Source of the DNA: Halomicronema hongdechloris C2206
GTDB lineage: Bacteria > Cyanobacteriota > Cyanobacteriia > Phormidesmidales > Phormidesmidaceae
NCBI RefSeq assembly: GCF_002075285.3
Contig: NZ_CP021983.2
Location: 870,001-902,000 of the forward strand
DNA: 32,000 nt
Direction of reading: 5' to 3'
Part shown: one piece after another, positions 1 to 11,205 of the stretch
Layout of the letters: every line of letters begins with the position of its first letter
How positions within the stretch are numbered: position 1 is the stretch's first letter
Notes under the pieces: model-generated
Told to the model about the DNA's origin: nothing
The model's input: only the letters and a program-made list of their open reading frames with translations
Databases searched by the model: none
Translations under genes and position numbers: made by a program

Positions 1-94
1 CTGAAATCAGATGCACAACTGAAAACTAAAAGCAACCTGCGGAATATAGGTCAGAACACTCTCAGGAATTAGTGCAAAAGCTCTATGCGTAGCT

Positions 95-181
95 AGCTAA
101 CGATTGAGATGAGCCGCCGCAGATAACCCAAAGCACCCGACACATAACCTTTCGGCGGTCGGCTCCATCGATTTGTTAGCC
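95..181 (-). other. integron attC recombination site (attC_B), closing the DUF433 / PIN-like / 4-TM cassette
   Basis: Read on the minus strand: R'' GGCTAAC (181-175) and R' GTTAGCT (101-95). GC-rich arms 113-120 and 153-163 pair as 8 bp, with T159 extrahelical on the plus (bottom) strand. Length is 87 nt. Size and architecture match the attC at 5355-5434/7375-7380. Confidence 0.6.
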
Positions 182-235
182 CTCGCAACTACCCTCTAAC
201 GATCGCTCACTCCCTGATTCTTGATTTTTCCTTTC

Positions 236-787
236 TTACCTGCCCTTCGCCAGGTCCGCGTAGATCACAATCTCAATCCCCAGAAATATCAGAAACACCA
301 GTTCTGCCCAGCACAACACTTGAATTCCCCAATGAACTTGGGACACTAGCAGCCAAAAGGCAACGATCGCAGCGATACCCGAAACAACAAACGTCAACTC
401 ATCCACAACCAGTTGTTGCAGTTTGCGGCGATGGCGACGGTTATCGCTGCGGTGAGCAATTTCCCAGCCAAAAATTGAATCAATCTCACCCTGTCCCGCT
501 TCTTCTTTAACCTTTTCAACCAGCGTGTAGCGAATGTAGCGACCTAGTGCCGTAATTTTTTCATCGTTAACCAGATATGTCCATCCTAAAATAAGACAAA
601 TCCAGGGAATAATCAAAAAGGCATAGTAATTGTTGTTTGCCAGAGAAAAGGAAAGAATACCGCCGAATAGACCAAGGGTGACATACAGCAAGTTATCTCG
701 AAAACCGATGCGGGCTTTTTGCTCGTCTTTGAGCCGCTGATATTCTTGCAAATAAACTTCTAGCAGTGGAGATTTATTGTCAGCCAT
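236..787 (-). CDS. 4-TM integral membrane protein of unknown function (cassette-encoded)
   Basis: ORF 236..856 trimmed to the ATG at 787 (MADNKSPLLEVY...), 10 nt after the stop of the upstream gene. Four hydrophobic helices: LLYVTLGLFGGILSFSL, YYAFLIIPWICLILGWTYL, LTFVVSGIAAIVAFWLLV, VLCWAELVFLIFLGIEIVIY. No family recognised. Confidence 0.65.
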   Translation of the reverse strand: MADNKSPLLEVYLQEYQRLKDEQKARIGFRDNLLYVTLGLFGGILSFSLANNNYYAFLIIPWICLILGWTYLVNDEKITALGRYIRYTLVEKVKEEAGQGEIDSIFGWEIAHRSDNRRHRRKLQQLVVDELTFVVSGIAAIVAFWLLVSQVHWGIQVLCWAELVFLIFLGIEIVIYADLAKGR

Positions 788-797
788 TGCGTTTACC

Positions 798-1145
798 TTA
801 CAACGGAAGATATTGAATCTGGTTGAAATAATCTTCTGGTTCGGCGACTTTTGCAATCAGGTCCAAGTCTCGAACACAATCACCTACCGATACTGCTGTT
901 TGGCGAGCATAGATCACTCCGGCAAAGTCAATTCCTTCTGCTTGACGACGTGATGCTTCAATGGGGAAATCCTCATCTTGCGAAAATAGGACTCGCCCTA
1001 ACTCCAGTGCCCGATCAAGTAAAGCCGGATCAGGATAACCCCTGCGATCATCTTCTTGAACCGTAAGGATATCAACTCCTCGACGACGTAATCCTTCCGT
1101 GATTGCCAGCGGCACATGCTCATCCATATAGAGCGCGATCGTCAC
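798..1145 (-). CDS. DUF5615 / Mut7-C-type PIN-like nuclease domain protein (putative toxin)
   Basis: 3' part of ORF 798..1217. The GTG at 1145 overlaps the TGA of the upstream DUF433 ORF (GTGA, 1142-1145); an alternative ATG is at 1127. VTIALYMDEHVPLAITEGLRRRGVDILTVQED... resembles DUF5615 proteins, which normally pair with DUF433. Confidence 0.6.
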   Translation of the reverse strand: MTIALYMDEHVPLAITEGLRRRGVDILTVQEDDRRGYPDPALLDRALELGRVLFSQDEDFPIEASRRQAEGIDFAGVIYARQTAVSVGDCVRDLDLIAKVAEPEDYFNQIQYLPL

Positions 1146-1456
1146 AGCAATCCTTGCTCCCGTAGTTTCCGAGCGACTGCTGATTCTCCTACCTGTTGAC
1201 GGGCATGGGCTGCCCACTGGTCGATCTGCTCAATTTCAGCATCCATATCTGCTTTGTGATCCCAGTAATACGCCAGGGCAGAATGAATCTGGCTCATAGA
1301 AAGATGGGGATAGTTGGCGTGAAGTTCGTCGGGATTCCAGCCATAGGCTTTGACAGAGGTAATCAACTCGATCACCTTCATCGTAGTATCGGCGATAACC
1401 GGAATTCCATTTTCATTAATTTGAATATATTTGTAGTCTGTAGTAGTGAGAGTCAT
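1142..1456 (-). CDS. DUF433 domain protein (putative antitoxin / DNA-binding partner)
   Basis: 104 aa. YIQINENGIPVIADTTMKVIELI...GWNPDELHANYPHLSMSQIHSALAYYWDH matches the DUF433 pattern. It is translationally coupled to the downstream PIN-like ORF. Confidence 0.7.
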   Translation of the reverse strand: MTLTTTDYKYIQINENGIPVIADTTMKVIELITSVKAYGWNPDELHANYPHLSMSQIHSALAYYWDHKADMDAEIEQIDQWAAHARQQVGESAVARKLREQGLL

Positions 1457-1501
1457 GATAACTAGCGGGAGTAGAGGTGGACTAATCAGAATTCTTGAAT
1501 C

Positions 1502-1864
1502 TCAGGAGTTACCTGCTTCCTCCTCCGATACATCAAACATCAATAGATGCTTGATGAACCCTGCTGCCGCTGCTGCTGCGTAAAGTTGCCAGGGCTTGTC
1601 TTTAGTGCCGTCTTTAGTATCGTCCGCATAGTCACACAAGGCACGGACAATAAGACATCGTATCCGTTGATCCCATGCCGCTTTGCTGACACCATATCCT
1701 TCCATTTCAATTGCCCGAATTCTTCGGCTATAGGCAGCAATCCTATCTCGCACGTCGGGATCGGCAATGACGTTGTCTCCGGAAGCAATAACACCAATCT
1801 CGACTCCAGGGTAAGTTCCAGTATCATTAGGTCGCTCAGCAAGAATGGGAAACTTTCTTTTAGG
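1502..1864 (-). pseudogene. C-terminal part of a nucleoside phosphorylase superfamily (PNP_UDP_1-like) gene, separated from its upstream part by IS66 insertion
   Basis: KRKFPILAERP...GVEIGVIASGDNVIADPDVRDRIAAYSRRIRAIEMEGYGVSKAAWDQRIRCLIVRALCDYAD carries the C-terminal MTA/SAH-nucleosidase-like motifs (xEMEG, R..CDYAD). The first four codons of ORF 1502..1876 (GTGACCAGTTAC) are IS terminal sequence. Confidence 0.75.
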
Positions 1865-3443
1865 GTAACTGGTCACCGCAATAGTAGAGGCTTAATGAGA
1901 AAGCCTCTGACGACCCAGACTTATCCTGGTAACAGAACAGGAGGCGAGCACCCTGATGAGGCGAGGAGCTCAAAGAGCTGGTCTACCGCGTTTTCACCCT
2001 GACGGCGCATCGATTCGAGGAAGCTGACCATCATCGCCACGAGCTGAGCCCCCCACTCACTGCGGGCACCGCCACTGACGTTGCGATGAATCACCACCGG
2101 CCGTAGGCCTCGCTCCGCATCATTGTTGTCCGGGTTAACCTCAGGCTGAGAGAGAAAGGTAAACCAGTCTGAGCAATAGCGACGAAACCGGTTGCTCAAG
2201 GCTTGAGAATCAGCGGTCCAACGCCCGTTGGGGGGGTGCTCAAGCACATGGGCTAATTCTGCCTCGACAATCGGCCGCAGCGCTTGGAGTTCGCCGAGAC
2301 TGAATTGACCCCAATGATAGTCCCGGTGGGCCTGCCGAGCGGTCTGAATAATCGGCAAGATGCGCTGGGCGAACTCTCGATTTTCCGGGAAGCGAGAGAT
2401 TGTCAATGCCTTTAAGTCCCGCTCAATGTGGGCCCAGCATTTCTGCTTGGCGGCGGCCGATTGCGGCCCGTAGGCGGACCAGCAGTCGCTGCTGAGGACG
2501 CCCGCAAACTCGCCTCCCAAAAGCGCGTTGACTTCTGCCGAACTGCGGGTAGGGGCAAAGAACAGCACACAGCACTCGGGGGCGGTGGCAATCCACAGCC
2601 AATGATTCACCCCGTTCAAGCGATAACTGGTCTCATCGACACAGCGCACCCCCGGCTGTTGAATCCAGCTCCACCAGTGCTCATAGGCCGGTTGTAAGGC
2701 CTCGCAAAACCACTGATGCAGCTTCGCCAAACTCCCCTGAGACATCGGAATCCCGAAGATACTCTCGACCACATAGCGCTGTTTTGACCACGATAAGTTG
2801 CCGCCATACCCCAGCCAACCCACCACACTACTCAAGCGGCCGCCATAGCTAAACCCCTCCCGGCATCCCAGCGGCAAGTCCTGATAGCCTTGCCACTCGC
2901 AGGCGGGACACCGATACAACGGTCGCTCGTACTCCCAAATCTCGACGAGCTCTGGCACTAATTCGGCCACTTGCTGTCGCTTTGTCCCTTGGGGTTGGCG
3001 CTCCACTGCACCGCCGCAGATCGGGCAACTCTGCATGTCGAGTAACACGCTGTGGTCAATCCAACCAAAGCCATGGCGGGTCGTGCCAGGGTGGTTGTAT
3101 TTGGGGCCTCGTTTTCGCTGGGACTTTTGCTGATCCCGCTTCGGTTTCTTGGGGCCATCAGAGGATGGCGGCTGTGAGCTGGTTTCACTGGTCCGCCGGG
3201 TTAGCTTCCTGAGCTTCTCGCTCAGGGTCTCGAACTGCTCCTCGAGCTCTTTCACCCGTTGCGTCAGGCGCTCTGTCTCCGCTCGTTGCTCGCAATAGCG
3301 CTCGTACCCGTACCTCGCCCCTTGCTCTTCAGGGTCGATCTCGGAGAGGGTTGGCTCTGGCTGCGGTGGCTTTTTCATGTCCTCTACTCTACCGACTTTT
3401 GCCTGTTTCGCAATAGGTGGGTCTTGTTGCGGTGACTAATTAC
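1865..3443 (-). mobile_element. IS66-family insertion sequence, single-ORF type, apparently intact
   Basis: Terminal inverted repeats GTAACTGGTCACCGCAA (1865-1881) and, reverse-complemented, GTAATTAGTCACCGCAA (3443-3427) match at 15/17 and start with GTAA. A perfect 8-bp direct repeat CTTTTAGG flanks the element (1857-1864 and 3444-3451). Length is 1579 bp. Confidence 0.85.
1921..3378 (-). CDS. IS66-family transposase (TnpC-like, DDE)
   Basis: 485 aa uninterrupted. It has an N-terminal coiled-coil/leucine-zipper region, zinc-finger-like CPICG...CPACE, and DETSY...SDCWSAY...CWAHIERD...NPDNNDAERGLRP motifs typical of IS66 transposases. Confidence 0.9.
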   Translation of the reverse strand: MKKPPQPEPTLSEIDPEEQGARYGYERYCEQRAETERLTQRVKELEEQFETLSEKLRKLTRRTSETSSQPPSSDGPKKPKRDQQKSQRKRGPKYNHPGTTRHGFGWIDHSVLLDMQSCPICGGAVERQPQGTKRQQVAELVPELVEIWEYERPLYRCPACEWQGYQDLPLGCREGFSYGGRLSSVVGWLGYGGNLSWSKQRYVVESIFGIPMSQGSLAKLHQWFCEALQPAYEHWWSWIQQPGVRCVDETSYRLNGVNHWLWIATAPECCVLFFAPTRSSAEVNALLGGEFAGVLSSDCWSAYGPQSAAAKQKCWAHIERDLKALTISRFPENREFAQRILPIIQTARQAHRDYHWGQFSLGELQALRPIVEAELAHVLEHPPNGRWTADSQALSNRFRRYCSDWFTFLSQPEVNPDNNDAERGLRPVVIHRNVSGGARSEWGAQLVAMMVSFLESMRRQGENAVDQLFELLASSGCSPPVLLPG

Positions 3444-3721
3444 CTTTTAGGAACCGCTTTTGCCAGGTTCAAAAGCCATTCATCAGCAGGAATTTGCTCA
3501 GGTTCTTCGAGTTTGCCTTTAGGGGTCAATTTACCGAGTTCAAAGTAATAAACGCTCTCTCCAATGACTAAATCACCGAGAATTTGCAGGTGGAAAGGGT
3601 AAGGGATTACGGCGCAGATCCAAAATTTTGAGTTGGGGTAACTCTTCGAGTCAATCAGGGCAAGTTTCAATTTGGGTAAACGTTCACGTGAGGCGTAAAG
3701 GAATGTGAAATCCGGCCATGG
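3444..3721 (-). pseudogene. upstream part of the same phosphorylase-like gene (central domain segment); N-terminal third missing
   Basis: ORF 3440..3670 ends ...LAKAVPKR and then a TAA supplied by the IS end. Deleting 1865-3443 plus one CTTTTAGG copy joins ...AVPKR to KFPILAERP... in frame. ILGDLVIGESVYYFELGK resembles the central GD-containing strand of the fold. The frame stays open upstream to 3721, inside the next IS end. Confidence 0.7.
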
Positions 3722-5341
3722 TCATCCTCTGGTAATTTAAGGAACTATGGATGAGCAATATCTCAATCAGCCAGAGGGAATTCCTTTAGAAGACTGGGAG
3801 CGCACTCCAGTCAGCGTCAAGCAACTGGTTGGCCAGTTGAGTCAGCGCCTGGTGCAGTTAGAGCATCAATACCAGGACATGCAAGCGCAGATGCAGTTGC
3901 TGCAAGAGCAACTCAACCGGAACTCAACCAACTCATCGCAACCCCCGTCATCCGACCCGCCGCAGGTCGAGCCCCGTCGTCGTCGCCGCAACCGAGGTCG
4001 AGGCCGAGGCGGTCACCCCGGCCATCCCGGCCACCATCGCCGGTTGTTTGCGCCTGAGGCGTGTGAGACTATCAGCGATCATTATCCCGAGACCTGCGCC
4101 AACTGTGGTGCGGCCTTGAGCGGAGAAGACCCGAATCCCTATCGGCATCAAACCGTGGAGATGCCACCGGTCGTCCCTCAAGTGAAGGAATATCGCTTGC
4201 ACCAACGGGTCTGTCCCCAGTGTGGTCATCGGACTCGTGCCAAATTGCCAACCGGTGTTTCTAGTCACGTTTATGGGCCTCGAGTCGTCGCTACGGTCGG
4301 TGTGCTCAGTAGTCTGTATCGCCCTCACAGCGCCTGGTGCAACAGGCCATGGCCGATTTATTCGGCCTCCCAATAGCCCTGGGCAGTGTCAATAATCTGC
4401 GCCAACAAGCCAGCGAGGCGGTGGCTGAACCGGTCGAGGTCGCCAAGACCTATGCTCGCCAACAACCGATTGTGGGCTCAGATGAAACCAGTTTTTCCCA
4501 AGGCAATGTGGATGGTCACAATCCTGAGGGACGTCAAGGTTGGCTCTGGGTGGTGGTGACGCCCTGGGTGAGCGTCTTTGAGGTGTTTCTCCATCACTCC
4601 CAACAGTCCGCCCAGGCCCTCTTAGGCGCAACGTTCGATGGCATTTTGATTTCAGATCGCCACAGCGCCTACACCTGGGTGGCCTTGGAGCGTCGGCAGC
4701 TCTGTTGGGCGCACTTGAAACGAGACTTCACCAAAATTGCCGAGCGCACAGGGGTGTCTCAAGGTTTAGGTGAGGCGCTGCTCGAGCAAGAACAGGCGTT
4801 ATTTAAGCTCTGGTATCAGGTTCGAGATGGCACCTTAGCGCGTCCACAGTTTATCGAGGCGGTGAAGCCGATTCGCGAGCAGGTGAAGGCCCTGCTCACC
4901 GAAGGCGCTAGCTATGCCATCGGCCCTAAAGAGAAGACGCCGTTGGCGAAAACGGTGCGCACCTGTCAACGCTTATTAACGGTGGAACCGGCCCTCTGGC
5001 TCTTTATCACAGTGGAGGGGGTGGAACCGACTAATAATGATTCTGAGCGAGCGTTGCGACCAGCGGTCATCTGGAGAGGCATTAGTTTTGGCTCCCAGAC
5101 GAAGGCCGGCAGTACCTTTGTGGCTCGAATGCTGACGGTGATAGCAACACTACGTTCTCAAAATCGCAGTATCCTCGAGTACATGACTGAGGCCTGTCGG
5201 GCAGCCCGTGAGGGGAAACCGGCTCCTTCATTATTGCCGCAAACTCCTAATACACAAGAGCGGGACTCACTTGCGGCTTAATACCCACTGGTCGATTACG
5301 GTTTCAAAGACTCGACCAACAATCTTTCACTACGCCTGCAC
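3676..5341 (+). mobile_element. second, different IS66-family element (boundaries approximate)
   Basis: Subterminal inverted match GTGAGGCGTA..GTGAAA (3688-3710) against reverse-complemented GTGCAGGCGTA.GTGAAA (5341-5322). A GTAA-type start is possible at 3676. I could not find a clean 8-bp target duplication. Confidence 0.55.
3747..5281 (+). pseudogene. IS66-family transposase interrupted by a single frameshift
   Basis: ORFs 3747..4376 and 4337..5281 are the N- and C-terminal parts of one IS66 transposase (CANCG...CPQCG zinc finger, DETSF, SDRHSAY, CWAHLKRD, PTNNDSERALRP). The frame changes at about 4320-4325: ...SSLYR then SQRLVQQAMADLFG. One base appears to be missing in tatcgccctcacag. 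Confidence 0.85.
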
Positions 5342-5354
5342 AAATCACTCAGAG

Positions 5355-5434
5355 GGCTAACGGTGAAAGCCAGCGGCGGTAGGTGACCTATGCGGCTTGG
5401 CCAGAGCTTTTAGACCGTCCGCTGCGCTGAGGTG
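5355..5434 (-). other. integron attC site (attC_A), major part: R' box, both L arms and the first base of R''
   Basis: Minus-strand R' is GTTAGCC (5361-5355). Arms 5369-5379 (GCCAGCGGCGG) and 5415-5427 (CCGTCCGCTGCGC) pair as 11 bp, with T5418 and C5425 extrahelical on the plus (bottom) strand. G5434 plus 7375-7380 restores GTTAGAC, the complement of R'' GTCTAAC. Total length is 86 nt once the intron is removed. Confidence 0.7.
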
Positions 5435-5932
5435 GTACGCCCGGCACGGGCGTGAACTAATGGGGTGAAAGTCCCCTGTCGGAGAACCAGTGTCCAAATG
5501 CTCGAAAGCTAATTGGAGCCGAGAGACACCAACGACTAGCTTAAGGCAAGGGCGTTTCCGCGAGGGAGGGTCTGGAGGAAGCCAGCGGCAAAGCTGCGAG
5601 CCGACGGACAGAAACATCATAGAAGGCCGAGATTCCTGGGGCGAGTCTGCCACACAAGACAAAGCCCTCTGGTTCAGGGAACACGGTAAATGGCGCGGTT
5701 GTGCAGGGACAGTTCACGGTCTTATCCGGGGAGGTCTGCCCAGGTGCAGCCAGGGGCGCTAGGGAAGTCGGACTGAGGGCCATCCCGAAAGGGCTGGACA
5801 ACCCACCGAATCCTACGGCAACTCAGGCAGCGCGGCTAACGGCAACGTGAGGCGAACTGGGCAGAAGTCAGCCGAGGTCATAGTAGCTGCGTTGGCAGCG
5901 AAGGACCGAACAGTGTCAAATAAGGAGGAGCC

Positions 5933-7270
5933 ATGACGGACTCAGACGTATCAATGAACCTGGATAGGGGAGACACGGTCTGGCGCACGGTCATGCAGCC
6001 AGCCTTAGACATCAACCTGATGGCGAAGGTGGTAGCGAAAGCCAATCTGCAGAAGGCATGGCAACGAGTGAAGTCAAACCAGGGAGCACCCGGCAGTGAC
6101 GGGATGTCTCTGGAAGCCTTTCCAGGCTATGCCCGCGAGCATTGGCCCACCATTCGTCAGTCCTTGTGGAATGGAACTTACCACCCTCAACCCGTGCGGC
6201 GGGTGGTAATACCCAAACCAGGGGGTCGAGGGGAAAGATTGCTCGGTGTGCCCTGTGTGGTCGACCGCGTGATTCAACAAGCCATTCTGCAAGTGCTCAC
6301 GCCAATCTTTGACCCCGGCTTTTCCGAGTCAAGTTTTGGCAGTCGCCCCCAACGCTCGGCTCATGGAGCCATTGCCCAGATAAAGGGCTATCTGAAGGAG
6401 GGCTATCGCGTCGCGGTGGATTTGGACTTAGAGAAATTCTTCGATACCGTTCATCATGATGTGCTGATGTCCCGCGTTTCACGCAAGGTGCACGACAAAG
6501 TGCTTCTGAAACTGATAGGCCGCTATCTACGAGCTGGCGTCATGGTGGACGGCATCATCCAGGCAACGGCATGGGGAACCCCGCAAGGGTCGCCCTTGTC
6601 GCCGCTGCTCGCCAACATTTTGTTGGCTGAACTAGATCAGGAACTGGAGCAGCGAGGCCACCGCTTTGTGCGCTACATGGATGACTTGGTCATTCTGGTC
6701 AGAAGTGAGCGGGCAGGCAAGCGGGTCATGGCTTCTGTGAGTCGATATCTGACCCAAAAGCTGAAGCTGAAGGTGAATCGGCAAAAGTCCCAGGTAGTGA
6801 ATGTCCATGACTTGGAATACCTCGGATTTCAATTTCGAGGGATCCGAGTCTATTGGTCGGACCAAGCCTTTGCAGACTTTAAACACCGACTGAAAGGGCT
6901 AACGGCCCGCAGTTGGCGCGTCTCAATGGCCCATCGCCTGGAGCGATTGAACCAGTACTTGAGAGGCTGGATGGGTTACTTTGGCATCTCGCAGTATTAT
7001 CACTCGATACCGGATCTCGATGGATGGCTGAGGCGTCGCCTTCGGATGTGTTACTGGAAACAGTGGCGTCGACCGCGCACGCGCATTCAGAAGCTCCTGG
7101 AATTGGGGACGGATAAGCGTCATGCGATTCGGACAGGCATTAGCCGTAAGGGCTATTGGCACCTGTCGCGAACGCTGGCAACGCAAACGGGGATGACCAA
7201 TGAGTGGTTAGCAAAGCAAGGATTGTTGTCGATACGTGACCTTTGGATGAAAGCCCAGGGTTACATTTAA
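5933..7270 (+). CDS. group II intron reverse transcriptase/maturase (no endonuclease domain)
   Basis: 445 aa. RT motifs are present, including YMDDLVILV (YxDD), plus a maturase/X domain (RLNQYLRGWMGYFGISQ). The protein ends shortly after the X domain with no HNH/En extension. Confidence 0.95.
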   Translation: MTDSDVSMNLDRGDTVWRTVMQPALDINLMAKVVAKANLQKAWQRVKSNQGAPGSDGMSLEAFPGYAREHWPTIRQSLWNGTYHPQPVRRVVIPKPGGRGERLLGVPCVVDRVIQQAILQVLTPIFDPGFSESSFGSRPQRSAHGAIAQIKGYLKEGYRVAVDLDLEKFFDTVHHDVLMSRVSRKVHDKVLLKLIGRYLRAGVMVDGIIQATAWGTPQGSPLSPLLANILLAELDQELEQRGHRFVRYMDDLVILVRSERAGKRVMASVSRYLTQKLKLKVNRQKSQVVNVHDLEYLGFQFRGIRVYWSDQAFADFKHRLKGLTARSWRVSMAHRLERLNQYLRGWMGYFGISQYYHSIPDLDGWLRRRLRMCYWKQWRRPRTRIQKLLELGTDKRHAIRTGISRKGYWHLSRTLATQTGMTNEWLAKQGLLSIRDLWMKAQGYI

Positions 7271-7301
7271 CAACCCAGGTTAGTGTTTGCTCCTTGATGC
7301 T

Positions 7302-7374
7302 GAACCGCCCTGTGCGGACCCGCTTGCAGGGTGGTGTGGGAGGGGGGATTCGTGAGGATTCTCCCTATCCCGAT
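7302..7374 (+). ncRNA. group II intron domains V and VI
   Basis: DV (~7304-7335): ACCGCCCUGU pairs with GCAGGGUGGU (10 bp), with a UU bulge on the 3' strand, a 3-bp distal helix GCG/CGC and a 4-nt loop. This 32-nt form is short, as expected for class C. DVI (7338-7370): a 14-bp helix with a GUGA tetraloop and a bulged A7367 lying 7 nt from the 3' end. Confidence 0.75.
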
Positions 7375-7380
7375 TTAGAC
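7375..7380 (-). other. remaining 6 nt of the R'' box of attC_A (3' exon side of the intron)
   Basis: TTAGAC lies immediately 3' of the intron. With G5434 it forms GTTAGAC on the plus strand, which is GTCTAAC (RYYYAAC) in cassette orientation, starting 3 nt after the stop of the protease gene. Confidence 0.7.
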
Positions 7381-7383
7381 CGT

Positions 7384-7791
7384 TTACGGCGACTTGGGCT
7401 TAACCTCGAATTCCATCTTAGAGCGATAAAAACATATGTCGAACTCCACAAAAAAGTTCGTCTGACCTAGAATCAATGGTGCATTGGGGCCTTTAGTCCA
7501 AGCAAAGGCTAATTGAACTGGAGCGATATCTCCAACTTGAACCATCGCGGAGAATGGTGTAGCTGGTTGGTTGCCCAAATTTCCTGCCAGTTGAATGATT
7601 GCTCTGCTGTCGTCCCAGGTGGCCCCAAGCTGTAGACCCAGTTCATAAGGCATAACGTTGACGGTTGCGCCACTGTCAACCAGGCCGAGGGCTTCAACTG
7701 TACGCCCCTCGCGACGAAGAATGAGCGGCACCCGTGGAAGACTATCGAACTCGTTCTGGGAGGTATCGGTGGTGGAATAGCGGAAACGCAT
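7384..7791 (-). CDS. retropepsin-like (clan AA) aspartic protease
   Basis: 135 aa with the active-site motif LVDSGAT, followed by a flap-like region and ILGQTNFF. The size is typical of single-domain bacterial retropepsin-like proteins. Confidence 0.75.
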   Translation of the reverse strand: MRFRYSTTDTSQNEFDSLPRVPLILRREGRTVEALGLVDSGATVNVMPYELGLQLGATWDDSRAIIQLAGNLGNQPATPFSAMVQVGDIAPVQLAFAWTKGPNAPLILGQTNFFVEFDICFYRSKMEFEVKPKSP

Positions 7792-7796
7792 GACAA

Positions 7797-8006
7797 TTAA
7801 GCCTGATCCGCTGACTTTAAAGCTTGCATTAACGTAGCGCCCGCCCCAAAGCTGTTGTAGGGGGTCGGCAAATCATAGGTTTTGAAGGGTTCCAAGGGCG
7901 AGACATCCTCTGCTGCTTCTAGATCCTCTGCCAAAATCCGAATCAGCTTAAGTTTTTCTGTGATAGAGAGTTGTCGAATGGCGGGAAGAACATCAATAAG
8001 AGTCAT
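7797..8006 (-). CDS. small antitoxin-like protein ('addiction module component'-like N-terminus)
   Basis: 69 aa. MTLIDVLPAIRQLSITEKLKLIRILAEDLE resembles the helical N-terminus of putative addiction-module antitoxin components. Its stop lies 5 nt before the protease start. Confidence 0.55.
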   Translation of the reverse strand: MTLIDVLPAIRQLSITEKLKLIRILAEDLEAAEDVSPLEPFKTYDLPTPYNSFGAGATLMQALKSADQA

Positions 8007-8172
8007 TTTTCAATGTCTAGGATAAAAAACTGTTAGCTCTTCAAGTCTAGCCAATTTTGTGCTGGCTCGGTCGGACACCGAGCAACCTTCAGCGATTTTT
8101 CAATACTACAGAGAAATATCTAGTTCCTCCTCCTTACACAGGTTTTGGCTTTCACGGTCTAACTCTATGTTT

Positions 8173-8382
8173 TCAACGCCGATTTCTATTACGTTCCGTC
8201 ACCCTAAAATAGGTCTCTATCATTGACGAAAGAAAAGCGACAATTATGAAGATACCTCCACAAATTACGCCAAACCATAAATTTGACTGAGATGTTAAGC
8301 CTCCATGAAAAATTATTGCCCCCGCAAGAAGCACAAACTGTGGTTCGAGTTCTTTTCTCATCATCAATTTCCCAAAGAACAA
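8173..8382 (-). CDS. hypothetical small membrane peptide (weak call; TTG start, alternative ATG at 8364)
   Basis: This is the only minus-strand ORF between two GTTAGACCG boxes (8418-8410 and 8163-8155). It has two hydrophobic stretches, lies in AT-rich sequence and matches no recognisable family. Confidence 0.3.
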   Translation of the reverse strand: MFFGKLMMRKELEPQFVLLAGAIIFHGGLTSQSNLWFGVICGGIFIIVAFLSSMIETYFRVTERNRNRR

Positions 8383-8409
8383 AAAACAATCGCTGAGAAT
8401 CTGAATCGT

Positions 8410-8588
8410 CGGTCTAACTTGTAATTGATCAGCATTACCTCCCTCGAAGCGGTCTAATCCACCTCTGCGGAGGTATTATCTACCATTCGTGCTAGATAAT
8501 ACTCCTCAGGGAAGATATAGCCAGCAGAAAACCGGTCTAATCACCCGATTGAGGGGGGTATCCATCATCTATGCAATCTAATCACCCT
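8410..8588 (-). repeat. direct-repeat array of the integrase-box-like motif CGGTCTAA(C/T)
   Basis: Plus-strand copies: CGGTCTAAC at 8410-8418, CGGTCTAATC at 8450-8459 and at 8533-8542, and ATCTAATC at 8576-8583. TCTAATCACCC is repeated at 8537-8547 and 8578-8588. The same 8-mer also occurs at 8155-8162 and, inverted, at 5410-5417 and 7375-7382. Confidence 0.7.
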
Positions 8589-8743
8589 AAATCCAGGGAT
8601 TAGGCGGCTAGAAAGCTCGATAAGATCCCAATCAGGGGTGTTATCCAGCACTTGACGCAGATAATAGCCTTGAAACGGTGAGTTATCCGGCTAACTTCAG
8701 CAAAACTTTATTTAGAGTATGGATATATTCCAGTGTGATATTT

Positions 8744-8757
8744 AGTACACTAGTCCT
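8744..8757 (+). promoter_or_regulatory. candidate cyanobacterial LexA-type operator overlapping the putative intI promoter
   Basis: AGTACACTAGTCCT differs at one position from my recollection of the cyanobacterial LexA box RGTACNNNDGTWCB. It lies just downstream of an extended -10-like TGTGATATT (8734-8742) and 24 nt upstream of the intI ATG. Confidence 0.25.
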
Positions 8758-8780
8758 ACTCATGTGTCTGCTACTCACCC

Positions 8781-9746
8781 ATGGAACCCCGACCTAGGAA
8801 GCTGCTCGACCAGGTTCGAGATGCTATTCGGCTGAAACATTATTCCTATAAAACTGAGCAGACCTACGTAGGTTGGATTCGTCGCTATATCCTTTTCCAC
8901 AACAAGCAGCATCCCAAGGAAATGGGTAGTGCTGAGATTGAGGCATTCTTGACTCATCTCGCTGTTGAACAGCAGGTGTCAGCCTCGACTCAAAATCAGG
9001 CATTCAGTGCTCTGCTGTTTTTATACCGTCAGGTCTTGAACCAAGACTTAGGTAGCTCTATCAATGCTGTCCGGGCTAGGCCATCCCGGTATTTGCCAAC
9101 GGTGCTCACCAAGGCTGAGGTGAGATCAATACTCAGCCGGGTGACTAAGAGTCCCGGCCTCGTGATTCAGATACTCTACGGTAGTGGCTTACGGCTCAAT
9201 GAAGGATTGCGGCTACGCGTCAAAGATTTGGATTTTGCCCAGCGTCAAATTATCGTCCGTGATGCCAAAGGCCACGAAAGTCGAGTCACAATGCTCCCAA
9301 GCAGTTTGATTGACCCTCTACGGCAGCATCTACAGCATGTGAGGCGGCTTCATCAGCATGATTTAGACCGGGGGTATGGTTCGGTTTATCTTCCCTTTGC
9401 ATTAGAACGCAAATATCCCTATGCCGATCGCGCCTGGATTTGGCAATTTGTATTTCCGTCTCTATCAAGATCCAAAGATCCGCGCAGTGGGCTGGTTAGA
9501 CGACACCATCTACATGAAAGTAGCGTGCAGCGAACGCTCAAACAGGCAGTTCGGGAGGCCGGTATCCCAAAACGAGTCAGTTGTCATACGTTTCGACACA
9601 GTTTTGCCACCCACCTGCTTGAAGATGGCTACGACATTCGCACTGTGCAGGAACTGCTAGGGCACAAGGATGTAAAGACGACTATGATTTATACCCACGT
9701 GCTGAATCGAGGTGGGTGTGGGGTACGTAGTCCGCTGGATGGGTAG
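8781..9746 (+). CDS. intI: integron integrase (IntI-type tyrosine recombinase)
   Basis: 321 aa. It is collinear with IntI1 as I recall it: [50 protein letters not shown], the IntI-specific insertion [21 protein letters not shown]...[15 protein letters not shown], then [52 protein letters not shown]. Catalytic R, HxxR and Y residues are all present. Confidence 0.93.
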
Positions 9747-10046: not shown

Positions 10047-11205
10047 TAGCAATCCCATTTAATTCATGAAAAGCTTCCGTACATGTGGAGTTTGGGGAAA
10101 TCCAAAGATATCTAGTCTAAAGAACTGCTCAAATAGCGCTTTGAGGGCTGAAAAACAGGGCTTTAAGCCCGACATCCGTCGTAACCAGATCTTCGCCTGC
10201 AACCAGGCATCTTCAATTGGGTTTTGACTGGGATCATTGGGCGCAAACTGGACACAGTGGAGCTTCCAGTCCTCCGGGGCCAATCCCGCATTTACCTCCG
10301 CCAGAAAGGCTCGTAAGTCGTGGGAACGATGGTAACTCGCTCCATCCCAAAGAATCAGCAAGCGCTGACCAGGAAATTGGGGTTGCAAACACTGGAGATA
10401 GGCAATGGTTTCGGTGGTGTCCCCTTTGGCATGGGCCTGAATCACCAGGCGTTTTCTGAGCAGATCCAGTGACCCGTAGTAGGTTTGACGGTCCCGTTCA
10501 TTCACGATGGGCATCTCAATCCGCTCATCGGTGCGGCCCCAGACATATCCTTGCAAGTCGCCACTGAGCCAATGAGACTCATCGACCAACAGAACTCTCA
10601 GGCGTCCGGCTTCAATCTCCTCCCGGTAGCGCGCCAACAACCGTCGGATTTCGACTTTTTTGCGGCCACCGCCTTGGCATCGGCTTTGGGATTGACTTTA
10701 CTGGTCTTTTTTCAACTGATGCCAGCCGCCTTAAACAAGTCGTAGTAGCTTTGCTTGGACTCATACACGACATCGTAATGTTCAGCCAGATGCGACTCTA
10801 ATTCGCTTAACTCCCAGATCTTCTTCGTTCGTAACCATTGCAGGACGGCTTCCTTGGCCTCTGGGGTTAGATAACTCTGACGTCCTTTATGTTGGGGCCG
10901 AAAGCCAGCGAGACCTTCCCGTTCATAGACCTGTTTCCATTTGCTTAGGGCCCCAACGAGACATCCAAAATCGCGATGATGGCTTCGTAAGTGTAATCCT
11001 GATAAATCAGTTTGACGGCGAGCACTTTTTTCACTTGACGACCATCCCGCTCAGTGCGGATGAAGGTTTTGAGCTCTTCTATCGCAGTCGTTTTTTTTGG
11101 CCGATTCGGACAGAGCAACAGGCATCGGGAAAGACCTCAGTAGCCTAGTTTAGGTAGCTTCCGTAATTATACTGAGATGTCTTCACAAATCATTCCGGAT
11201 TGCTA
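10047..11205 (-). mobile_element. IS630-family insertion sequence (decayed)
   Basis: Terminal inverted repeats TAGCAATCC (10047-10055) and GGATTGCTA (11197-11205), flanked by TA on each side (10045-46 and 11206-07), which is the IS630 target duplication. Length is 1159 bp. Confidence 0.8.
10059..11125 (-). pseudogene. IS630-family transposase with multiple frameshifts
   Basis: The DDE_3-type C-terminal part is intact in ORF 10059..10640 (LLVDESH...ILWDGASYHRS...FAPNDPSQNPIEDAW). The N-terminal HTH part (MPVALSESAKK / TTAIEELKTFIRTERDGRQVKK / LSKWKQVYEREGLAGFRPQHKGRQSYLTPE... / KTSKVNPKADAKAVAAKK) is spread over three frames. The shifts occur at homopolymer runs, for example T8 at 11091-11098 and T6 at 10655-10660. 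Confidence 0.8.

Follow-up and report, generated by a model that had tools for sequence, protein, structure and literature searches.

The 32,000-nt stretch of the Halomicronema hongdechloris C2206 genome analyzed here (contig NZ_CP021983.2, positions 870,001 to 902,000; hereafter the window) contains an integron cassette with four genes and two insertion sequences (IS). The genes are a broken one with a phosphorylase-like PNP_UDP_1 domain (hereafter PNP), a DUF433 gene, a gene for a DUF5615 PIN-like protein, and a gene for a protein with four predicted transmembrane helices (4-TM). A preliminary description had proposed that the four genes together make up an undescribed conflict or defense module. 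Judged from gene neighborhoods, the conserved unit is the PNP_UDP_1 gene together with the 4-TM gene, and it appears in many cyanobacteria and some actinomycetes. We consider it likely that the cassette is a composite of the remains of a PNP/4-TM conflict module and a toxin-antitoxin pair, and that in the intact module the membrane protein would be gated by the product of the enzyme. The widespread two-gene association, which in the window survives only as a wreck, is a good lead.

Association of PNP and 4-TM genes in other genomes

The neighborhood of the 4-TM gene was surveyed in 80 species-representative loci, those most similar to the window 4-TM protein, with gaps measured between stop-to-stop open reading frames (ORFs). 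A PNP-domain ORF was found at 1.2 kb or less from the 4-TM gene in 57 of the 80 loci. As an internal control, PNP ORFs were counted by distance: up to 600 bp from the 4-TM gene their density was 6.5 per 10 kb, and elsewhere in the same flanks about 0.45 per 10 kb. The two genes were divergent in 30 of the 57 loci and convergent in 4, the PNP gene preceded the 4-TM gene in 17 and followed it in 6, and a gap of 11-51 nt separated them in 14 of the 17 loci with PNP first. In addition, all seven plasmid matches (five cyanobacterial, one from Streptomyces and one from Acaryochloris) had a PNP neighbor, called by its annotation as nucleoside phosphorylase or 5'-methylthioadenosine/S-adenosylhomocysteine (MTA/SAH) nucleosidase, or as PNP_UDP_1 by Pfam. 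These counts bear out the earlier proposal that the phosphorylase-like and 4-TM genes belong together.

The PNP partner was present in several architectures, namely PNP-SAVED beside a SMODS cyclase, PNP-PNP-STAND, PNP-TPR-PIN(GreABC), SNF2 helicase-PNP, PNP-bDLD3 and stand-alone PNP, as well as in Detocs-like sets. Divergent 4-TM members (34-38% identity to the window protein) keep the link with PNP. In locus L097 (1455-5564), a complete PDC-M60A/B/C operon (Detocs-like: kinase, receiver and receiver-PNP) is followed after 39 nt by one of these divergent 4-TM genes, which is not in the PADLOC PDC-M60 model set, and other divergent members adjoin genes for GAF plus PNP proteins or a PNP-STAND gene. 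The loci without PNP still had STAND/EAD8, NACHT, TPR, WD40 or CHAT neighbors of the 4-TM gene.

The window presents the order in which PNP precedes 4-TM. The usual short gap is now 649 nt and is almost exactly filled by the toxin-antitoxin pair. The features of the cassette are the following:

95-181, minus strand: attC_B, the recombination site closing the cassette; imperfect hairpin GGCTAAC...GTTAGCT with bulged bases, recovered by the hairpin scan
236-787, minus strand: intact gene for the 4-TM protein, 183 aa, 100% match to XM38_008490; family unannotated
798-1145, minus strand: gene for the DUF5615 PIN-like toxin, GTG start; PF18480 44 bits (cut-off 23.8), PIN_10 22 bits
1142-1456, minus strand: gene for the DUF433 (COG2442) antitoxin; PF04255 37.6 bits (cut-off 23.6)
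1457-1501, no strand: 45-nt spacer without attC; hairpin absent (z +0.9), nothing in the scan
1502-1864, minus strand: 3' piece of the PNP_UDP_1 remnant with its natural stop codon; Pfam positions 140-219 of 233
1865-3443, minus strand: IS1, IS66 family, transposase at 1921-3378; NF033517 270 bits, inverted repeats, 8-bp duplication
3444-3586, minus strand: 5' piece of the PNP_UDP_1 remnant, homology from LGDLVIG; Pfam positions 88-218 together with the 3' piece
3587-3675, no strand: 89 nt between the PNP remnant and IS2, probable breakpoint scrap, unlike PNP homologues
3676-5341, plus strand: IS2, IS66 family, transposase frames at 3747-4376 and 4337-5281; Pfam DDE_Tnp_IS66, zf-IS66 and DUF6444
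5342-5354, minus strand: first cassette bases past the R' core, by direct reading of the sequence
5355-5418, minus strand: probable attC_A; GTTAGCC core plus an imperfect palindrome of about 60 nt, adjoined by a group II intron

The membrane protein family

The 4-TM family comprises 1,459 clusters at 90% identity and 1,089 representatives at 50% clustering. The relatives listed are 59-86% identical to the window protein and about 183 aa long; the named members belong to cyanobacteria, with a more divergent branch in Streptomyces, Micromonospora and Actinoplanes. The family had no match in Pfam, NCBIfam, PADLOC or PHROGs. The AlphaFold2 (AF2) model of the protein is all-helical with four transmembrane helices (TM) and a mean predicted local distance difference test (pLDDT) of 79. 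In the predicted layout, TM1 continues a long helix at the N-terminus and is followed by TM2, a conserved charged segment, TM3 and TM4; according to the predicted topology, the charged segment between TM2 and TM3 (NDEK...GWE.HR.D..R..RK) would be cytosolic. A profile search of the family against PDB sequences gave only noise, and Foldseek of the model against PDB and BFVD gave no match at E <= 0.001. Membership in the SLATT group of small membrane proteins was also considered and rejected: none of 47 members gave a significant match, and the best value (E = 0.037, to SLATT_3) is noise.

What the 4-TM proteins accompany is more uniform in chemistry than in protein. Identity among them is about 67% irrespective of whether the partner is a PNP of type A or of type B, and these two types are only 29-31% identical to each other in two direct BLAST comparisons. 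The protein P0131 (319 aa), present on five contigs, carries a domain similar to nucleoside deoxyribosyltransferase or CMP N-glycosidase (Pfam 24.9 bits; E = 1.8e-4 to PDB entry 4jen) fused to the 4-TM domain; compared with PNP, this N-terminal domain appears to be of another fold and to have the same chemistry. A single-sequence AF2 model of P0131 was unusable (pLDDT 42). Other 4-TM members adjoin genes for NUDIX, cpYpsA (SLOG) and MazG proteins. We infer from the constant identity with either PNP type, the P0131 fusion and these last neighbors that the 4-TM protein is linked not to one protein surface but to what is produced when nucleotides undergo N-glycosidic cleavage.

A further fusion was observed in Actinoplanes, where P0307 (293 aa) joins an RyR domain to the 4-TM domain.

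Identity and decay of the PNP gene

The preliminary description had seen in the phosphorylase-like gene a possible nucleotide-degrading effector, to be abandoned if it proved to be a housekeeping MTA/SAH nucleosidase gene. The source genome, one of whose proteins matches the C-terminal PNP fragment at 100%, does annotate it as a 5'-methylthioadenosine/S-adenosylhomocysteine nucleosidase, and the nearest solved structures are MTA/SAH nucleosidases. Against this, the NCBIfam MtnN models give it 51 and 24 bits, well below their cut-offs of 169 and 74, and its best matches are the PADLOC profiles PDC-M60C (6e-19) and PN-superfamily effector (2e-12), values that are profile scores and not a phylogeny. 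Moreover, its relatives are fused to STAND, SAVED and SNF2 domains, and the gene sits in an integron cassette. The MtnN identity was rejected on the NCBIfam scores; the housekeeping reading, under which the locus would be unrelated to conflict, is hardly credible, and the gene is probably a defense-type PNP.

In BLAST comparisons, the window fragment shares 58% identity with the second PNP domain in the PNP-PNP-STAND protein of L. boryana, 56% with the PNP in survey locus L053, 53% with P0123, encoded directly downstream of the 4-TM gene in L006, and 50% with helicase-PNP proteins that precede a 4-TM gene. The closest PNP relatives, encoded in L006 (P0123), L053 and L010, have a 4-TM neighbor. 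By these comparisons, the fragment is of a subtype found beside 4-TM genes.

The PNP gene of the window is dead. The ORF at 1502-1876 (minus strand) still matches PNP_UDP_1 with 32.5 bits (cut-off 25.1). IS1 has inverted repeats of the GTAA type and is flanked by a perfect duplication of 8 bp (CTTTTAGG at 1857-1864 and 3444-3451). It can be excised in silico with restoration of the PNP frame, ...AKAVPKR being followed directly by KFPILAERP... The rejoined fragment has 193 aa and covers only profile positions 88-218 of 233. BLAST similarity to PNP relatives begins at its residues 29-31 (LGDLVIG, around coordinate 3586), and the N-terminal part needed for a complete catalytic domain is absent from the locus. 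The adjoining 3587-3675 segment is probably breakpoint scrap. In another frame of the minus strand this segment reads LEELPQLKILDLRRNPLPFPP, which resembles a leucine-rich repeat and may be rearrangement scrap of another gene.

The left end of IS2, at 3676 (GTAAACG), can be aligned with the IS1 end. The element ends on the right near 5341; there, the outer 12 nt of the inverted repeat differ from the left end, and no target duplication was found at the ends of the element. Of the marks of the IS66 family (DDE transposase, GTAA-type repeats and 8-bp duplication), IS1 has all three, and IS2 retains the transposase domains and the left end only. Because its transposase is split over two overlapping frames of 209 and 314 aa (3747-5281), its right terminus is unrecognizable and the target duplication is missing, IS2 is probably immobile. 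The lack of this duplication, together with the missing PNP N-terminus, indicates that the 5' part of the PNP gene was lost in a rearrangement; therefore, the cassette no longer has its original intact form. With its 5' part lost, its remainder split by IS1 and IS2 abutting it, the gene is unable to make the enzyme.

Decay of PNP next to an intact 4-TM gene was also observed in L061, L065, L067 and L072. The earlier suggestion that IS hits reflect counter-selection of a toxic effector agrees with this recurrence, which fits the loss of a costly effector and does not amount to proof.

The DUF433/DUF5615 pair

DUF433 (COG2442) is a predicted family of PIN antitoxins (PMC2701414), and among predicted type II toxin-antitoxin pairs the DUF433-PIN combination is one of those that occur most often, above all in cyanobacteria (PMC2701414, PMC4963859). 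Makarova et al. did not find conserved neighbors of COG2442 other than PIN genes (PMC2701414). In the window, both domains score above their cut-offs and, as already described, the GTGA at 1142-1145 contains both the stop of the DUF433 gene and the start of the PIN-like gene, which gives the two-gene layout with a 4-nt overlap. The acidic residues expected of PIN-like domains could be recognized by eye in MDEHVP, DPALLD and SQDEDF. The pair departs from the DUF433-PIN pattern only in position, the ATG of the 4-TM gene lying 10 nt past the PIN-like stop, as had been noted. From its domains and layout, we predict that it is an ordinary, self-contained PIN-type toxin-antitoxin pair of a known kind.

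A different PIN-type pair was seen just downstream of the same PNP subtype at another locus: the closest full-length relative of the window PNP, P0122 (57% identity; L007 340-2344, and L008), is followed in L007/L008 by a 124-aa ORF and a toxin-antitoxin pair with a DUF2281 antitoxin and a PIN toxin.

Cassette boundaries and integron context

The extent of the cassette agrees with the preliminary description: four co-oriented minus-strand genes and two IS66-family elements lie between attC_B and the GTTAGCC core at 5355-5361, and about 1.9 kb is left once both elements are removed. The assessment of attC sites was made by folding and a hairpin scan, and not with a covariance model, there being too few attC sites. 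The strict RYYYAAC/GTTRRRY consensus misses even attC_B, and a looser criterion of hairpins closed by AAC...GTT was used for the scan. attC_B folds as a canonical attC hairpin. The core of attC_A (GTTAGCC, 5361-5355) is identical to the attI core; its fold is weak, and the palindrome of about 60 nt extends to the start of the intron homology around 5414. The upstream boundary is thus less certain than the downstream one.

The note had remarked that an attC at 1457-1501 would split the unit. Such a site was looked for and not found: the region 1450-1530 folds no better than shuffled sequence (z +0.9), and the scan of 1-9000 recovered attC_B and nothing credible between the genes. The cassette has its own attC hairpin at the end and starts just past the preceding R' core, with the reservation made for that site, and its genes, all on the minus strand, point away from intI (8781-9746, plus strand; 481 bits on TIGR02249), as in an integron array. 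Its content differs from the usual single promoterless ORF, with four genes and two IS elements. A scan of the locus for promoters and terminators gave results no better than chance and was uninformative.

The group II intron (about 5414-7374, plus strand, opposite to the cassettes; Rfam RF02001, RF01998 and RF00029) has a reverse transcriptase ORF at 5933-7270. Homology to other copies of the intron runs from about 5414 to about 7374. The intron adjoins attC_A and does not replace it, because this homology begins only past the palindrome. The 10-mer TTTAGACCGT is present at both edges of the intron (5409-5418 and 7374-7383).

The cassette adjoining attI (7384-8006, minus strand) contains a 69-aa ORF (7797-8006) with a weak match to PDC-M52A (E = 4e-4) and a 135-aa aspartyl-protease-like ORF (7384-7791) that matches PDC-M52B (E = 8e-42), and is, by these profiles, a candidate second two-gene defense unit of the array. 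The motifs GATTAGACC / GTTAGACC recur in the attI-proximal region (8400-8620, minus strand), and a 69-aa ORF that is hydrophobic by eye (8173-8382) lies between two of them. Just past intI, a 193-aa ORF (10059-10640, minus strand) resembles by eye the C-terminal part of a DDE transposase.

One system or a composite

DUF433 and PIN-like genes were sought with iterated profiles up to 6 kb from the 4-TM gene in the 80 survey loci. One or both were present in 4 loci, in 2 of them directly beside the 4-TM gene. The preliminary idea of a single conserved four-gene system is not supported, the pair being absent from nearly all PNP/4-TM loci; of the co-occurrence for which it suggested a survey, the recurrence of PNP with 4-TM was found, and DUF433/PIN directly upstream of 4-TM occurs only in L053 and, decayed, in L061. 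Such a system would have PNP as effector, DUF433/PIN as regulator or second effector and the 4-TM protein as third component, and we regard it as unlikely. The tight packing and common orientation of the genes speak for it, with no attC found between them and the terminator scan uninformative. So do three of the loci: L053 has the same order (DUF433, PIN-like, a 27-nt gap and 4-TM, a co-oriented type-B PNP gene lying 4.9 kb upstream), L061 holds a decayed copy of this arrangement, and in L011 the SNF2-PNP and 4-TM genes are preceded by a DUF433-PIN pair; in L038/L040, DUF433/PIN is about 5 kb from the 4-TM gene. However, stand-alone DUF433-PIN modules are abundant in cyanobacteria, and the PNP domain is the only part of the four proteins by which a multi-gene PADLOC system is matched. 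Furthermore, the DUF433 subtype of L053/L061 differs from that of the window, which points to separate acquisitions, and the arrangement with the pair upstream of 4-TM therefore arose at least twice. This recurrence is suggestive of a functional tie, which cannot be separated from the repeated lodging of a mobile pair because such pairs are abundant in cyanobacteria and the loci are few.

An even less probable alternative, to which we give little credit, is that two or three single cassettes (PNP, toxin-antitoxin and 4-TM) became fused by chance with loss of their attC sites, so that their adjacency would here be meaningless. Multi-gene cassettes are unusual, the region has clearly been rearranged, with two IS elements, the loss of a 5' part and no duplication at IS2, and chromosomal integrons commonly carry toxin-antitoxin cassettes. 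Against it stand the facts that PNP and 4-TM genes are adjacent in dozens of genomes outside integrons, that no trace of an attC was found in either the 45-nt or the 10-nt spacer, and that the window PNP is of the very subtype that adjoins 4-TM genes elsewhere.

Proposed mechanism

In the composite that we favor, one unit would consist of a Cap17/DtcC-like PNP_UDP_1 nucleotide N-glycosidase effector and the conserved 183-aa four-helix membrane protein, and the other would be the DUF433/DUF5615 pair, lodged in the short gap that normally separates co-oriented PNP and 4-TM genes. In an intact module, a locus-specific sensor part would switch on the PNP domain, which would then split ATP or another nucleotide and release the base. 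The membrane protein could act on or sense the product, free base or ribose 5'-phosphates, through its conserved basic cytosolic loop, and would be a product-gated membrane effector with a logic like that of SLATT proteins. In the window itself, function can still be expected of two parts only, the toxin-antitoxin pair and the orphan membrane protein.

Several observations weigh against this explanation. The PNP gene was absent from the examined flanks in 13 of the 80 loci and found only at 1.2-6 kb in 10, and the PNP profile of the survey was home-made from 8 sequences. The pair lies directly upstream of 4-TM in two further loci, with the other DUF433 subtype. The 4-TM protein has no detectable likeness to SLATT or to any solved or viral structure searched. 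The P0131 fusion is a single cluster, and its N-terminal domain is under the Pfam cut-off (24.9 versus 28.8 bits). Finally, Cap17 and DtcC work in E. coli without a membrane partner (bioRxiv 10.1101/2023.01.24.525353); therefore, the partner is not obligatory for the enzyme.

The main rival concerns the mechanism only: the 4-TM protein may be an immunity or antidote protein, or an exporter, protecting against a leaky PNP, and not a downstream effector. We think this possible, though rather improbable. It would agree with the presence of the 4-TM protein beside the enzymatic domain whatever the sensor, with divergent transcription from the PNP gene in 30 of the 57 loci, and with the intact state of 4-TM where PNP has decayed (the window and the four loci with decayed PNP mentioned above), as is seen with orphan immunity genes; one divergent member, moreover, is placed after a NUDIX-NrtR regulator, as occurs with salvage transporters. 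It agrees less well with the unusual conservation of the 4-TM protein, which does not co-vary with the PNP subtype, or with the P0131 fusion to an N-glycosidase-like domain, which would be unusual for an antidote, and one would hardly expect to find the inhibitor of a cytosolic enzyme in the membrane.

Going beyond product gating in this module, the whole 4-TM family might represent an unrecognized membrane executor or sensor triggered by what a PNP/Cap17-like or deoxyribosyltransferase-like N-glycosidase produces, such as ribose 5'-triphosphate or free adenine; we offer this only as a tentative proposal that may well be wrong. In some lineages, including that of the window, the DUF433/PIN promoter would drive the 4-TM gene as a stress-responsive switch. 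If true, the ATP-nucleosidase immunity of multicellular bacteria would gain a second, membrane-directed arm.

ATP-nucleosidase (PNP) effectors are a recently recognized immune strategy common to bacteria and eukaryotes. If the 4-TM protein acts downstream of the enzyme, the model of how PNP systems arrest or kill the cell would change; in the antidote or exporter case, the tolerance of cells toward these enzymes would have an explanation. For integron biology, the cassette is a multi-gene unit that retains a toxin-antitoxin pair while IS elements destroyed a costly gene.

Comparison with known systems

With the COG2442/DUF433-PIN type II pairs (Makarova 2009, PMC2701414; Kopfmann 2016, PMC4963859), the window pair shares the antitoxin-first order and the 4-nt overlap. 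Unlike the usual pairs, its toxin is of the DUF5615 PIN-like branch, and it forms part of a larger cassette in which the 4-TM gene starts 10 nt past it. The preliminary statement that the combination is not a described system thus fails for DUF433/PIN, a known predicted pair, and stands for the 4-TM partner in the literature searched.

Rousset et al. (bioRxiv 10.1101/2023.01.24.525353) describe the PNP effector as an ATP nucleosidase. In common with the Cap17/DtcC effectors (type III cyclic oligonucleotide-based antiphage signaling systems (CBASS), Detocs and PADLOC PDC-M60), the window has a PNP_UDP_1 domain, probably of the defense type, and 4-TM-linked relatives include PNP-SAVED beside a SMODS cyclase and the full PDC-M60A/B/C operon. 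However, the window copy is truncated, split by an IS and without sensor part, kinase or cyclase partner: the kinase and receiver genes of Detocs/PDC-M60, complete in L097, are absent, and there is no CBASS in the window, CD-NTase/SMODS and SAVED being present beside the 4-TM homologue of Calothrix (L001). The published Cap17/DtcC systems are described without a membrane partner, whereas the loci studied here carry a conserved 4-TM gene; no description of a membrane partner of PNP/Cap17 effectors was found in the literature searched.

The genomic logic is that of the SLATT proteins with two transmembrane helices (Burroughs 2015, cited in PMC7159879), small membrane proteins beside base-releasing or nucleotide-signaling enzymes. 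In PMC7159879, SLATT proteins are noted alongside PNPase and TIR effectors, their enzyme partners are PNPase, TIR and SLOG, and they belong to conflict systems of multicellular bacteria. The 4-TM protein differs in having four predicted helices and not two, and neither a sequence relationship nor a structural match was detected. With the nucleoside triphosphate (NTP)-dependent conflict systems of Kaur et al. (2020, 2021), the 4-TM loci have in common the STAND/NACHT, TPR, WD40, CHAT, EAD8, bDLD3 and vWA-MoxR (SAV_2336) neighbors, the PNPase effector domain, and cyanobacterial and actinomycete hosts; text searches of these papers did not bring up a 4-TM protein as partner of PNPase effectors.

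Each of the following is a known kind of element: the PNP effector, the toxin-antitoxin pair, the IS66 elements, the intron and the integron. The conserved 4-TM partner of PNP effectors, which travels with CBASS-like, Detocs-like, nucleotide-binding leucine-rich repeat (NLR)-like and helicase-linked architectures across two phyla, is absent from the literature searched and from the domain and defense libraries used.

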